A program made the position numbers and the translations under genes. Below the pieces are notes generated by a model. That model made no database searches, had not been told where the DNA came from, and saw only the letters and a list, made by a program, of their open reading frames with translations. From Escherichia coli (lineage in GTDB: Bacteria > Pseudomonadota > Gammaproteobacteria > Enterobacterales > Enterobacteriaceae), in NCBI RefSeq assembly GCF_003991155.1, contig NZ_CP031293.1: a DNA stretch of 64,000 bases; one strand, written 5' to 3'. Below, piece by piece: positions 22,479 through 44,950 of the stretch. How positions within the stretch are numbered: the first letter of the stretch is position 1; every line of letters starts with the position of its first letter.

Positions 22479-23018
22479 TCATATTGCCCCCAGCATGGTG
22501 GTGACCATCGCCATCAGTGGACCAGCCAGATCTGGGTCCACACGAAACATCGACACAATACCTTCACTAATTTCCTTCAGTTTCTGGTGGCGTGGTGCGT
22601 TGAGAATGACAGCCTGTTTTGCCTCACTGAGTTCCTTTTCCATTTCAGCCAACCTAGCCATAAAGCTATCCTGCTCAACCAGGTAACCGCGATATTCCAG
22701 CGGTAGTACCGCCAGAATTGCCGGGGTCAGTTCACGCACGTTATTTCGGTATTTTTCAGAATCGAATTTGTTATCGAGGAAGCGGAACAGCTTCTGGCGT
22801 GCACGGCTGACATCATCAGGGAAATCGATGGTGCCGCCGCCCAGCTCCCGATACTCATTCACAATGAGTGCGGCAACAACATCCTGATTATCTGCAGCCG
22901 ACCAGGCGCGAACGGCATCACGGATTTTTTCGTGGCCTGGCGCCTGTTTTGTTTGAGAACGATTTATCACCGCAGTCGGGGTAAATCCGCTAGTCTGTTG
23001 GTATGTAATTGGTTGCAT
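22479..23018 (-). CDS. Protein in the cII position (179 aa; possibly CII/CP76-family regulator)
   Basis: ATG with AAGGA RBS; lies between cro and O; far longer than lambda cII and not matching it; family assignment is from memory only. Confidence 0.4.
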   Translation of the reverse strand: MQPITYQQTSGFTPTAVINRSQTKQAPGHEKIRDAVRAWSAADNQDVVAALIVNEYRELGGGTIDFPDDVSRARQKLFRFLDNKFDSEKYRNNVRELTPAILAVLPLEYRGYLVEQDSFMARLAEMEKELSEAKQAVILNAPRHQKLKEISEGIVSMFRVDPDLAGPLMAMVTTMLGAI

Positions 23019-23099
23019 AATTGATTCCTTTAGTTTGAATTGACTGTTAATCAGTCTGTTAAGTTGATTGCTTATTGTTAAAGAGCGTGAAATGGAAAT

Positions 23100-23330
23100 T
23101 TAAGCTGCGTTCTTTTCGGTGTGTGGAAACAACTTCGGAAGATCCGGGCGAATCTGGTATGCCTTCACAACTCCACCAGTAGCCGTAACAATGCTGCCGA
23201 CATGTTCAGGGGATACCTTTGCTTTGTTGTGAAGCCACTTATAGACGGCCTGCTGTGAAACTTCGCAGGCATCGCCCAGTTTCTTTTGTGAACCAACTAT
23301 ATTGATCGCTGTTTTGATTGCTGGGTTCAT
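23100..23330 (-). CDS. cro: Cro-like HTH repressor
   Basis: 76 aa, HTH-like segment (QKKLGDACEVSQQAVYKWL); divergent from cI across operator region; GGAGG RBS. Confidence 0.7.
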   Translation of the reverse strand: MNPAIKTAINIVGSQKKLGDACEVSQQAVYKWLHNKAKVSPEHVGSIVTATGGVVKAYQIRPDLPKLFPHTEKNAA

Positions 23331-23362
23331 AACAACCTCCGTGGTTAATCTGAACCAAGATT

Positions 23363-23425
23363 AAAACTATGGTTGTTTTTAGTCAACAACCATTTTCGTT
23401 TGATGGAATAAAACCTTGGTTGTAC
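23363..23425. promoter_or_regulatory. oR: oR operator/promoter region (pRM/pR) with three related sites
   Basis: 17-mer AAAACTATGGTTGTTTT (23363-23379), related sites near 23383-23399 and 23409-23425 (AAAACCTTGGTTGTACA); same motif recurs at oL. Confidence 0.6.
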
Positions 23426-23434
23426 ATTTGGTCT

Positions 23435-24124
23435 ATGAAAACAACACTCTCAGAAAGACTTAAAGAAGCCAGATCAGCGCGAGGCCTTACACAAAAGGCA
23501 CTTGGGGATTTGGTTGGGGTTAGCCAGGCTGCTATTCAGAAAATCGAAACAGGGAAAGCTAACCAAACAACTAAAATCGTGGAGATCGCGAACGCTTTGG
23601 GTGTGCGCGCAGAATGGTTATCTTCTGGCATTGGAAATATGTCAGACAGTACAGTGCAACCAATACAATCAACTCTCAGCCATTCCAAATACTTCAAGAT
23701 TGACGTTCTTGATATAGAAGTCAGTGCTGGGCCGGGAGTCATCAACCGTGAGTTTGTAGAAGTTCTACGCTCGGTTGAGTACTCGTTTGACGATGCTCGT
23801 CACATGTTCGATGGTAGGAAAGCGGAAAATATCCGCATCATTAACGTGCGTGGTGACAGCATGTCAGGAACGATCGAACCAGGTGATCTGCTGTTCGTTG
23901 ATATCACTGTTAAATCTTTCGACGGTGATGGTATCTATGCGTTTCTGTACGACGACACAGCCCATGTAAAGCGCCTGCAAATGATGAAGGATAAGCTGCT
24001 GGTCATCTCTGATAACAAAAGCTACTCACCGTGGGACCCGATCGAGAAAGACGAGATGAACCGGGTGTTCATCTTCGGTAAGGTTATTGGGAGCATGCCG
24101 CAGACGTACAGGAAACACGGATAA
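23435..24124 (+). CDS. cI: CI repressor (HTH + LexA-like S24 peptidase domain)
   Basis: Track ORF 23369..24124; likely start MKTTLSERLKEARSARGLTQKALG at 23435 with no SD (leaderless, as for lambda cI from pRM); C-terminal serine-protease-type region (GDSM...K). Confidence 0.88.
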   Translation: MKTTLSERLKEARSARGLTQKALGDLVGVSQAAIQKIETGKANQTTKIVEIANALGVRAEWLSSGIGNMSDSTVQPIQSTLSHSKYFKIDVLDIEVSAGPGVINREFVEVLRSVEYSFDDARHMFDGRKAENIRIINVRGDSMSGTIEPGDLLFVDITVKSFDGDGIYAFLYDDTAHVKRLQMMKDKLLVISDNKSYSPWDPIEKDEMNRVFIFGKVIGSMPQTYRKHG

Positions 24125-24204
24125 TCAGCTGCGTGCTGATGAGGCTTTAGGGTAATGCGCTGAAAGAATTCTTTATAAAAATAACATTACGGGAAAGGCA
24201 AAAA

Positions 24205-24474
24205 ATGAGTGATAAAAAACTTATTAAAAAATCAAATAACTGTGTAGATGCATATGCTGATGCATTTGGATATTCATCTTTTGGGGAAGATGACGATCGC
24301 TTAGGCTCCATATCTTTCTTTCAGCATGTTACAGAATGGGACGCTGATGGTAGTAATGACACTGAAAGCGTAAAGTACAACATTGCAACAATTCGCATGA
24401 CGGAAGATTTAATGCTTAAACTCGCTGACTTTATTCGCGATCAGCATGATAGAGCTAAAACCAATAAGTCATAA
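24205..24474 (+). CDS. Hypothetical acidic protein (89 aa) in the rexA position downstream of cI
   Basis: AT-rich ORF, same strand as cI, 80 nt after cI stop. Confidence 0.55.
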   Translation: MSDKKLIKKSNNCVDAYADAFGYSSFGEDDDRLGSISFFQHVTEWDADGSNDTESVKYNIATIRMTEDLMLKLADFIRDQHDRAKTNKS

Positions 24475-24482
24475 TATTAACA

Positions 24483-24923
24483 ATGAAATACGGTTATTAC
24501 GAAGCTCCAAACCTAACTGAAAAGCTTGAACAAGCGGCAAGATCATCATCTTTGCACACCGCAGCATTTTCTCAATCAGCTGGTATGTCTGGCGATAATG
24601 TACCTATGCTACAATCAAGTGGTAGCGGTGGCTCTGGGAGTAATAATGTGCTTGAATCAAAAGTTGCAAAGCTTGAGTCTGATGTGTCCTACATCCGACG
24701 TGACGTTGATGAGCTTAAGACAGATGTCAAATCTATCGACAGAAACATGATCGCTGTTCTGGAGCGACTCGATTCAATAAAAGAGTCACTAGCCAAAAAA
24801 CCATCCATCGATGCTATCGATAAAAAGATTTCAGACGCAAAGCTTGCGGTATTGCTTGGTGTTCCAGCAATCATCGCTGCAGGAACAGGGCTTTATAAGC
24901 TATCAATGTACTTTTTTCTTTAG
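24483..24923 (+). CDS. Hypothetical coiled-coil protein with C-terminal transmembrane anchor (146 aa)
   Basis: Gly/Ser-rich linker, heptad-like region (LESKVAKLESDVSYIRRDVDELKTDVKSIDRNMIAVLERLDSIKESL), hydrophobic C-terminus LAVLLGVPAIIAAGTGLYKLSMYFFL. Confidence 0.55.
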   Translation: MKYGYYEAPNLTEKLEQAARSSSLHTAAFSQSAGMSGDNVPMLQSSGSGGSGSNNVLESKVAKLESDVSYIRRDVDELKTDVKSIDRNMIAVLERLDSIKESLAKKPSIDAIDKKISDAKLAVLLGVPAIIAAGTGLYKLSMYFFL

Positions 24924-25005
24924 TGCTTAAGAAACTGCTCGCCACCTCGCATTAGGCAAAGCGATTTTTCATTCCCTATTACCCTTTCTTAACCAATCAT
25001 CTAAA

Positions 25006-25032
25006 CCCGGCCCCGTGCCGGGTTTTCTTTTG
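25006..25032 (+). terminator. Rho-independent terminator ending the cI-downstream operon
   Basis: Stem CCCGGC (25006-25011) / GCCGGG (25017-25022), then TTTTCTTTTG. Confidence 0.65.
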
Positions 25033-25144
25033 CCCTCCCCTCATCACACACACCGTTAAAAAAACCACCATAACCTCGCTTCAGTTATCGCTATGCGATT
25101 CAAGTCACAAAATAAATCCATCCTAAATACAACCAGTTATATCT

Positions 25145-25197
25145 AAAACAACCAATAAAACAACTTTTGTTGTTGACGATAAAACAACTATAGTTTT
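25145..25197. promoter_or_regulatory. oL: oL operator/promoter region (pL)
   Basis: AAAACAACTATAGTTTT (25181-25197) differs at one position from the reverse complement of the oR 17-mer; related sites at 25145-25161 and 25157-25174; TTGACG -35-like hexamer at 25172-25177. Confidence 0.55.
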
Positions 25198-25395
25198 AAA
25201 TAAGTTCATCGCAACAACACAACGATACGGCAACCACCTGATTCACCGTTGCGATGACCGCTTAGATCCGCAGCTTGAATTTCAGCAGGCTCCGGGGAGT
25301 GCGAGGGGTGAAGCGGACGCGTGAACGTCGGTGTGACCAGCTGAAATCAACTCAACACTTCATACCTCAGTCGCTTCAACGAGGCGGCTTAGTTA

Positions 25396-25685
25396 TGACA
25401 ACCGGCGGCCATCCACCGCCTGAATACGCGCAGAAGTCTCTATATGTTCAGCAGCCCAGCTTACGGGCAGGAGTTTTTATGGTTCATCAACATTACGGTA
25501 CGCAGACCGTTAATCGCGGTGCGGTCATGCCAGGAATGCTGGTCAAACACAAAGATGGTACCTGGACTGCATCGGCTAATTTACGCGGACGGCTTTATCT
25601 GCATCGCGGCGTCGAGCGCACTTATACCCGTGACTTGCTCGTGGAAATTTTTCTCGACGGACGCGGCAACGGCCTGAATCACTAA
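25396..25685 (+). CDS. Hypothetical early-left protein (N/kil/cIII position); function unknown
   Basis: Track ORF 25275..25685 starts at TTG; first ATG with GAGG RBS at 25396 ([20 protein letters not shown]...); no match to recalled lambda N, kil or cIII. Confidence 0.35.
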
Positions 25686-30546: not shown

Positions 30547-30623
30547 TGGCGCGCCCTGCAGGATTCGAACCTGCGGCCCACGACTTAGAAGGTCGTTGCT
30601 CTATCCAACTGAGCTAAGGGCGC
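30547..30623 (-). tRNA. argU: tRNA-Arg (anticodon UCU); 3' end carries the prophage att core
   Basis: Minus-strand sequence GCGCCCTTAGCTCAGTTGGATAGAGCAACGACCTTCTAAGTCGTGGGCCGCAGGTTCGAATCCTGCAGGGCGCGCCA; cloverleaf elements and CCA end visible. Confidence 0.93.
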
Positions 30624-44056: not shown

Positions 44057-44950
44057 CTACAGCGAAATACAGGTCCCCGCTTCGCCCGCCAGCGTCTCTT
44101 CAATCCGCGATAACGCCCCAATCCACGCAGGTTTACCACGGCTTCTGACATAGCCACTCACCGCCGTTACCTTCGGCCCCATCGAACCATCGGCTTTGGC
44201 AAATGGCGCTAACTCATCCGGTGTGGCATGGCGAATGGCACGTTGCTGCGGCGTTCCCCAGTTTTCATATACCGCATCAGCATCGGTGAGGATCACCAGT
44301 CCATCGGCATTAATCTGCTCGGCGAGCAACGCAGCGGCGAGATCTTTATCAATCACCGCTTCACTCCCTGCCCCGTCTTCCGCCACAGGCACACCGCCGC
44401 CGCCACTGCAAATCACCACATGCCCCTCTTTGAGCAACAACTCGATGGCTTCGCTGTCGAGAATTTTACGCGGTTGCGGAGACGCCACCACCCGGCGCAA
44501 ATATTTACCATCACGTTTCATCTGCCAGCCGTAAGCCGCTTCCAGTGCCTCTTGTTCTTCTGGCTGATAAACCGGACCGATAAACTTCTCTGGCTGTAAA
44601 AACGCCGGATCATCAGGCGAAACCTCAATGCGCGTCAGCACCGTCGTGACAGGCGGCATCTGCGGCTGTGCGCTCAAGCTCTGCGCCAGCATATAGCCAA
44701 TCATCCCCTGGCTTTCCGCCACCAGCACATCCAGCGGATACGGTTCTACCTCTTTCCACGCCAGATTCTGTAACGCCAGCAGTCCCACCTGCGGTCCGTT
44801 GCCGTGAACAATCGCCAGCCGATAAGAACGGGCCAGGCGCGCCAGCGCGGGTACAGCACTGGCAATATTGCGATATTGATTTTCTGCCGTCAGCGCCTCA
44901 CCGCGCTGGAGTAAGGCGTTGCCCCCAAGAGCCACAACCAGTGTTTTCAT
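44057..44950 (-). CDS. ybcF: Carbamate kinase-like protein YbcF (ArcC family)
   Basis: Track ORF to 45064; 297-aa product from [18 protein letters not shown]. Confidence 0.85.

Follow-up and report, generated by a model that had tools for sequence, protein, structure and literature searches.

A putative immunity switch with 434-like repressor, probable 14-bp operators and a predicted leaderless cI gene in a lambdoid prophage of Escherichia coli

With reference to the systems described so far, the operators of phage 434 are 14 bp long (ACAA-N6-TTGT), with conserved outer bases and a variable centre, and those of lambda are 17 bp long and of the TATCACCGCCAGTGGTA type. In prophage CP-933P of E. 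coli O157:H7, the stretches protected by the repressor and by YdaS overlap within 97 bp of intergenic DNA, where the operators are 18-bp palindromes with the consensus GTTTAGTAA; its cI analogue beside ydaS/ydaT, PaaR2, was found to be leaderless by 5' RACE and N-terminal sequencing (PMC8630535). In this study, the region of the divergent cI and cro genes of a lambdoid prophage was analysed in a 64,000-nucleotide stretch of the Escherichia coli assembly GCF_003991155.1 (contig NZ_CP031293.1), the whole of which is called the window here. Comparison with related phages makes it very likely that this region is the immunity switch of the prophage, working with 14-bp operators, a 434-like repressor and a leaderless cI gene.

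Operator sites flanking the cI gene

An earlier sequence-only reading of the region had noticed two related 17-mers and had taken them for members of three-site operators on either side of a unit running from cI to a terminator. We observed that the 17-mer AAAACTATGGTTGTTTT indeed lies at 23363-23379 (+) and AAAACAACTATAGTTTT at 25181-25197, the reverse complement of the latter, AAAACTATAGTTGTTTT, differing from the former at a single position. A motif scan over the 64 kb returned these two as the only matches with three or fewer mismatches, where 0.22 matches are expected by chance per 64 kb and two or more were reached in 2 of 100 shuffles, and the two flank the cI gene, both cargo open reading frames (ORFs) behind it and the terminator at 25003-25025. 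The two further related sites that had been proposed for each cluster were both recovered at oR (oR2 and oR3; coordinates in Table 1), whereas at oL only one strong further site, oL2, was detected. The three-site description therefore holds for oR and not for oL, which has two clear sites and a third that is at best weak.

An exact search with the pattern AMAACNNNNGTTKT gave five matches in the window against 0.32 expected, a number reached in none of 100 shuffles, and four of the five are operators. The fifth match, ACAACCAGTGTTTT at 44934-44947, is located in a host ORF 14 kb outside the prophage, and one chance match fits the expectation. Additionally, an independent position weight matrix (PWM) was built from the oR sites of four other lineages only (E. 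coli KCJ3K291, a Klebsiella phage, a Providencia phage and an Erwinia phage), with no sequence of the window in it. With this matrix the five window sites took ranks 1 to 5 among 63,987 positions, the next match falling in a host gene outside the prophage, and in each of the four source loci, too, the top five matches comprised three sites at oR and two at oL, the latter 24 bp apart. In the window the centres are spaced by 23 and 24 bp at oR and by 24 bp at oL, with 31 bp onward to the candidate oL3.

The relatives compared consisted of 84 near-identical loci from viral contigs and phages, together with an E. coli prophage (L004, 83% nucleotide identity over the tested 341-bp oR/cI stretch), a Klebsiella phage (L005, repressor N-terminal domain 62% identical), a Providencia phage (L092) and an Erwinia phage (L093). 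The three sites between cro and cI and the two at pL were kept in all the relatives examined. Among the 84 close loci, 4 of 51 columns within the 17-bp operator windows were variable as compared with 15 of 53 outside (Fisher p 0.01), and with two divergent loci added the counts became 9 of 51 and 24 of 53 (p 0.003). The site oR2, located between the -35 elements of pR and pRM, was kept in the form ACAAC-N4-TTCGT in five lineages, and oR3 was kept in relatives although its central 4 bp vary. For oL3, an ACAACC half-site was found 31-32 bp from oL2 in four of five lineages, and oL2 and oL3 of 434 are likewise 31 bp apart; for these reasons 25129-25142 was retained as a weak candidate, though it is not among the window PWM matches scoring at least 10.

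Some other candidates were discarded. The half-site AAAACAACC at 25145-25153, considered as a third oL site, overlaps oL2 and has no conserved counterpart in L005 or L092. A match of the 17-mer model at 19914 is identical in ylcJ of K-12, where no cognate repressor exists. Again, a terminator-like match at 23369-23393 arises from pairing of the oR1 right half with the oR2 left half, and L005 does not conserve it.

With regard to the length of the recognition unit, comparison of the relatives makes a 14-bp unit of the 434 type, A(C/A)AAC-N4-GTT(G/T)T, more likely than a 17-bp one. Across five lineages the outer 5-bp half-sites were conserved and the central 4 bp were free to vary (TATG, CTTA, CATA, CATT, TATA, CTTG, CACG, TGAA and CAGC were observed), as in 434-like operators. 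The preference rests on two points, that the three extra bases of the 17-mer at oR1 are not conserved (TTT, ATT, ATT, TTT and ATC across lineages) and that oR3, ranked 159 by the 17-mer model when left out of it, is ranked 4 by the 14-mer model; the corresponding ranks of oR2 are 20 and 14. Lambda-style sites of 17 bp, AAAAC-N7-GTTTT, three per region as the sequence-only reading proposed, appear unlikely to us. Such sites would account for the agreement of the oR1 and oL1 17-mers at 16 of 17 positions, with 6 of 8 position pairs symmetric; oR1, oL1 and oL2 are also the best matches of a 17-mer PWM, and the centre spacing of 23/24 bp is that of lambda. Nevertheless, a key symmetric T would be expected at position 15 of the 17-mer, where L004 and L005 have A; in phiEt88 the flanking triplet reads ATC, and 14-bp sites are used by the homologue 434 and by related phages (the Stx1 type and 4A7). 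The 17-mer model moreover gives a strong match outside the immunity region, at 16713, that has no support in the 14-mer model.

This match, AAAACAATTATGGTTTA at 16713-16729, scores 18.9 with the 17-mer matrix (null expectation 0.01 per 64 kb) and 11.0 in the 14-mer model. It coincides exactly with a mosaic junction, where the shared nin region meets a cargo block, the latter holding a 314-amino-acid ORF without a Pfam match and a C-terminal fragment of a P22 antirepressor. As an operator it was rejected: the full stretch occurs in only 107 genomes, as against 1520 with the immunity region, and the site is absent from the DLP12 remnant of K-12. It is probably a chance match.

Predicted promoters and the start of cI

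Three promoters were predicted around the operators (Table 1). The layout of pR recurs in relatives, with TATTCT, TATTAT or TATAAT as the -10 element, and its predicted leader of about 21 nt carries GGAGG. For pL, the elements TTGAC(G/T/A)-17-TT(A/T)AAT and a cATC start were conserved in five lineages. Each of pR, pL and pRM matches 8-9 of the 12 consensus positions. An antisense promoter-like match at 25214..25187 was discarded, as it relies on a TATAGT inside oL1 that is CATAGT in L004.

Since pR and pL share a -35 element, a spacer and a -10 element, the likeness of oR1 and oL1 could be thought to reflect two related promoters and no repressor recognition at all, and the likeness does extend past the site, TTGAC(T/G)...AAAACAAC(C/T)ATAGTTTTAA spanning both the -35 and the -10. 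We regard this explanation as highly improbable, because the motif also occurs at oR2, oR3 and oL2, in other promoter contexts and in both orientations, because the half-sites are conserved although the centre and flanks vary, and because heteroimmune phages with the same flanks have exchanged the motif along with the repressor N-terminal domain and Cro. Recognition of the sites by the repressor and Cro is the reading that we retain.

The sequence-only reading also held that cI has no Shine-Dalgarno sequence and is leaderless, as for lambda cI from pRM. No Shine-Dalgarno was found before the ATG at 23435, where the anti-Shine-Dalgarno pairing energy is -2.6 kcal/mol, the corresponding figures being -3.0 kcal/mol for lambda cI and -10.2 kcal/mol for the cro gene of the window; the neighbouring genes tested ranged from -4.9 to -10.2 kcal/mol, except orf146 at 24483 (-1.0). 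The window reads TTGATG-17-TACATT-tggtct-ATG where lambda reads TAGATA-17-TAGATT-taacgt-ATG, which is the same geometry. Seven related phage lineages were found to have a -10-like hexamer 6-7 nt upstream of the cI ATG: at 6 nt in the window (TACATT), L004 (TAGATT), L005 (TAAATT) and L093 (TAACTT), and at 7 nt in L092 (TATCTT), the Stx1 type (TAGATT) and 4A7 (TAAATT). In the whole region, columns vary most between this hexamer and the ATG. As the predicted pRM transcript starts at, or about one base from, the A of ATG 23435, promoter geometry and comparison lead us to consider it likely that cI is expressed from a leaderless pRM transcript, in agreement with the earlier proposal; PaaR2 of CP-933P offers an experimental precedent.

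A longer repressor of 251 amino acids, starting at the ATG at 23369, is annotated by RefSeq/PGAP (WP_061092793.1) and in the PhiR34_1 record, and the upstream reading frame is uninterrupted in the window as well as in the majority of close relatives. That cI truly begins there, or that it is translated from a conventional leadered mRNA, as the annotated leader and ribosome-binding site of 434 cI might suggest, seems improbable. The ATG at 23369 sits within oR1 without a Shine-Dalgarno (-0.7 kcal/mol), and the extension meets a TAG stop in L004 and lacks an ATG in L005. The MKTTL position is where the homologues and the 434 repressor start, the 434 alignment beginning at residue 5 of the 229-amino-acid form, which corresponds to 434 residue 2, and only 11 nt lie between oR3 and ATG 23435, where 434 has 31 nt. 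The comparison favours the 229-amino-acid cI from 23435, and the 251-amino-acid form is likely a systematic mis-annotation in many genomes.

The centre of oR2 lies at -42.5 from the predicted pRM start, as compared with -42 for oR2 of lambda and -43.5 for OR2 of 434 as annotated. Lambda and 434 repressors activate pRM from that position. From this arrangement, and by analogy with lambda and 434, we infer how the sites would be occupied in turn and what would follow. The cI repressor and Cro would both bind the 14-bp two-fold symmetric operators; repressor at oR1, oR2, oL1 and oL2 would shut off pR and pL, and at oR2 it would aid RNA polymerase at the weak pRM, with occupancy of oR3 leading to negative autoregulation. 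Cro would use the same sites and shut off pRM. The pRM transcript, predicted to start at about the A of ATG 23435, would leave cI leaderless, as in lambda.

Several points weigh against this interpretation. The right half of oR2 (TTCGT) is weak, and part of its conservation could be due to the adjoining pRM -35. A generic consensus promoter scan of the window calls none of pR, pL and pRM; for pRM that was to be expected, and for pR and pL it is a reservation, the -10 of pL having a T at position 2 where the scan demands an A. The 17-mer and 14-mer models overlap, and computation alone cannot fully separate them. The cI gene of 434, whose repressor is the nearest characterised relative, is annotated with an 18-nt leader and a ribosome-binding site that are absent in the window, so a leaderless cI is not universal in the family. 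Moreover, an establishment promoter presumably drives cI as well, and its transcript would have a long leader.

Repressor, Cro and specificity

The repressor harbors the Pfam domains HTH_3 and Peptidase_S24, the latter being LexA-like. Its A98-G99, S142 and K179 align with lambda cI, S142 and K179 being invariant, and Ala98-Gly99 is the putative site of RecA-stimulated cleavage. That the protein is not lambda cI by sequence, as first noted, was borne out by an overall identity of 26%, mostly in the S24 domain. Among solved structures in the Protein Data Bank (PDB), the N-terminal domain is closest to the 434 repressor (E 2e-8). Cro was assigned to the Pfam family YdaS_toxin (6.6e-17) and also to P22_Cro.

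The half-sites were compared with those of other lambdoid immunity types, and they co-vary with the recognition helices of cI and Cro within each type. This window combines the cI helix SQAAIQK and the Cro helix SQQAVYK with the half-site A(C/A)AAC; 4A7 combines AQPTIWR and AQPTVWR with ATA(C/G)(G/C); the Stx1 type (SH2026Stx1) combines SQPAIQK and TQPAVHK with ATAAC; and 434 combines TQQSIEQ and KQQSIQL with ACAA(A/G/T). Natural domain swaps point the same way. In L004 the same N-terminal domain and recognition helix (SQAAIQKIETGK) are joined to a different C-terminal domain and the operators are kept. In 4A7 the same C-terminal domain is joined to a different N-terminal domain (AQPTIWRL) and a different Cro, and the operators are unrelated 14-bp sites of the ATACG-N4-CGTAT type. 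The flanks of 4A7 are 89-98% identical to the window, the divergence being limited to two blocks, from 23020 to about 23570 and from 25117 to 25207. On the strength of these swaps and of the co-variation of helix and half-site, there is good comparative evidence that the immunity specificity is set jointly by the operator motif, the cI N-terminal domain and Cro, as had been suggested for the motif.

The cI gene was also seen to be mosaic. Its S24 domain (23568-24123 of the window; compared with L086 and L004) is about 90% identical to those of 4A7, Perceval and Lambda_4C10, which are heteroimmune phages, and the C-terminal domain of L004 is unrelated to that of the window, the recombination joint lying in the linker, near residues 45-80.

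The series of four immunity types also suggests a simple residue-to-base code. Proline at helix position 2 accompanies T at base pair 2, and lysine at helix position 6 accompanies an invariant C at base pair 5, where 434 never has C. Such a code, in which helix residue 2 is matched with base pair 2 and residue 6 (Lys, Arg or Gln) with base pair 5, may set the specificity, given that the window operators overlap the 434 consensus and that oL2 is a perfect 434 site; we offer it, together with partial natural cross-recognition between the 434-type and window-type repressor or Cro, as a speculation that is more probably wrong than right.

The window type itself, on this comparison, is not imm434. 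Its repressor is a distant relation of the 434 repressor with a different helix, where true imm434 phages show 100% identity, and of its operators only oL2 fits ACAA-N6-TTGT, being the sole exact match to that consensus in the window; oR1, oR3 and oL1 each carry an AAAAC half-site. The exact operator strings were not found among the 8 million papers of the searchable literature, where the names of related phages gave nothing relevant either, and for this reason the operator specificity of the window appears to be uncharacterised.

Gene setting, spread and relation to known systems

The lambdoid prophage sits at the tRNA-Arg gene argU (30547-30623), the same integration site as that of the DLP12 remnant of K-12, and the orientation of the window is inverted relative to the lambda map. 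On the minus strand, cro is followed by a YdaT-family CII analogue (23018..22479), O, P, ren and emrE, and on the plus strand cI is followed by two small cargo ORFs, the intrinsic terminator, a kil-like ORF, gam, bet and exo. The cI and cro genes are divergent with 104 bp between them, and the three oR operators lie in this gap; the second cluster, oL2 and oL1 (25160-25197), lies past the terminator and upstream of the kil-like ORF, gam, bet and exo. The terminator was kept in phage 4A7 and in L005. A Pfam search with the cargo ORFs gave no informative match.

Table 1. Positions of operators, predicted promoters, genes and swapped cassettes of the immunity region in the window
Feature	Position	Strand	Remarks
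oR1, 14-bp operator AAAACTATGGTTGT	23363..23376		top PWM match in window, score 20.2; 17-mer 23363-23379
oR2, 14-bp operator ACAACCATTTTCGT	23386..23399		weaker right half; fifth PWM match of 63,987 positions, score 15.0
oR3, 14-bp operator AAAACCTTGGTTGT	23410..23423		exact match to AMAACNNNNGTTKT; independent PWM score 18.0; overlaps pRM -10
Candidate weak oL3, ACAACCAGTTATAT	25129..25142		only left half-site good; uncertain
oL2, 14-bp operator ACAACTTTTGTTGT	25160..25173		perfect ACAAC/GTTGT dyad
oL1, 14-bp operator ACAACTATAGTTTT	25184..25197		pattern and PWM match; 17-mer 25181-25197
Predicted pR	23358..23386	-	-35 TTGACT (23386..23381), 17-bp spacer with oR1, -10 TAATCT (23363..23358)
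Predicted pRM	23400..23435	+	-35 TTGATG (23400-23405), 17-bp spacer with oR3, -10 TACATT (23423-23428), 6 nt, ATG
Predicted pL	25173..25208	+	-35 TTGACG (25173-25178), 17-bp spacer with oL1, -10 TTAAAT (25196-25201), start about A25208
cro-like lytic repressor gene	23100..23330	-	76 amino acids, YdaS/Cro family, strong Shine-Dalgarno GGAGG; from the ORF list
cI repressor	23435..24124	+	229 amino acids; 434-like HTH N-terminal domain, Ala98-Gly99, S24 peptidase domain (Ser142, Lys179)
Two cargo ORFs (89 and 146 amino acids), rexAB position	24205..24923	+	co-transcribed with cI, outside the switch
Intrinsic terminator closing the cI operon	25003..25025	+	9-pair stem, then T run
Swapped cro-oR-cI N-terminal domain cassette	23020..23570		against 4A7: left flank 98%, right flank 89%; block unrelated
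Swapped oL/pL cassette	25117..25207		against 4A7: near-identical to about 25116 and from about 25208; unrelated between

We also observed that the cargo slot between cI and the terminator differs among phages of the same immunity type. It holds two unknown ORFs in the window, GevT/GevA in PhiR47_2, a YafO-family toxin pair in L004 and RexA/RexB in L005, and it is empty in PhiR34_1. Beyond pL, where lambda has the N gene and nut sites, no N-like antiterminator gene was seen in the window, and the first ORF encodes a 96-amino-acid kil-like protein starting at 25395. The pL leader, of about 190 nt (region 25208-25480), is 97-99% identical even in heteroimmune phages, and a 60-bp piece, 25359-25420, is common to HK225 (97%) and phi80 (85%). 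A put-like antiterminator RNA in this leader was not supported: there was no Rfam match, the folding z-score was 0.5, and in BLAST searches the leader resembled neither HK022 putL nor any second copy in the window.

Of 5426 complete E. coli genomes, 1520 carry the immunity module (23300-23640), with 95-100% identity and almost always in one copy; besides these genomes the same immunity type was found in six sequenced phages. Strain 2016C-3878 (NZ_CP029747) is 100% identical to the window across the tested stretch. K-12 DLP12 lacks the module, its whole cI-cro region being lost. Our data provide the operator sequence of one of the most frequent lambdoid immunity types of E. coli (28% of complete genomes), along with a corrected start for its repressor. 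The annotation is directly concerned, as the 251-amino-acid cI of RefSeq begins within oR1 and 229 amino acids are favoured, and the operator sequence helps to predict superinfection immunity among prophages. The locus is also a possible orthogonal repressor-operator pair for engineering, and the domain swaps together with the related half-sites (ACAAC/AAAAC, ATAAC, ATACG and ACAA) form a series for studying specificity change among 434-like repressors.

As for the mechanism, the switch is an ordinary one of a known kind, with no new kind of mechanism in it. Comparatively, CP-933P shares with the window a Cro of the YdaS family and a CII of the YdaT family. Its repressor PaaR2 is short (~15 kDa), heads a toxin-antitoxin operon and is not S24 self-cleaving, unlike the cI of the window, and its operator consensus is unrelated to the window motif. 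No YdaT site of the form TTGATT-N6-AATCAA was found between cro and cII, matches in the window being at chance level; the gap itself (23020-23099) has TTGATT twice and AATCA once, which recall YdaT half-sites. The Stx1 type (SH2026Stx1) and the 4A7/Bievrevirus type have three 14-bp oR sites and two at oL, as in the window, with half-sites and helices of different specificities.

Phage 434 and the window both display three oR sites, with the pRM -35 abutting oR2 and the -10 abutting oR3, as well as a C-terminal self-cleaving S24 domain, and the variable centre of the 434 operators is found again in the window. The centre spacings of 434 are 22/23 bp at oR and 23 and 31 bp at oL. The differences lie in the recognition helix and in the half-sites, where position 5 is C in nine of ten window half-sites and never C in twelve 434 half-sites, and position 2 may be A in the window and is always C in 434; the Cro of the window, being of the YdaS family, is also unlike 434 Cro. 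Lambda has the same order of cro, oR1, oR2, oR3, cI, cargo, terminator, oL and pL, the same centre spacings of 23 and 24 bp and identical pRM geometry, and in its pR and pL, as in the window, the -35 lies at the margin of site 2 and the spacer contains site 1; its CI N-terminal domain is unrelated in sequence to that of the window, and its operators are 3 bp longer than the probable unit here. In summary, the comparison suggests that the layout and the leaderless pRM would work like those of lambda, and that the repressor fold and the operator geometry are like those of 434.

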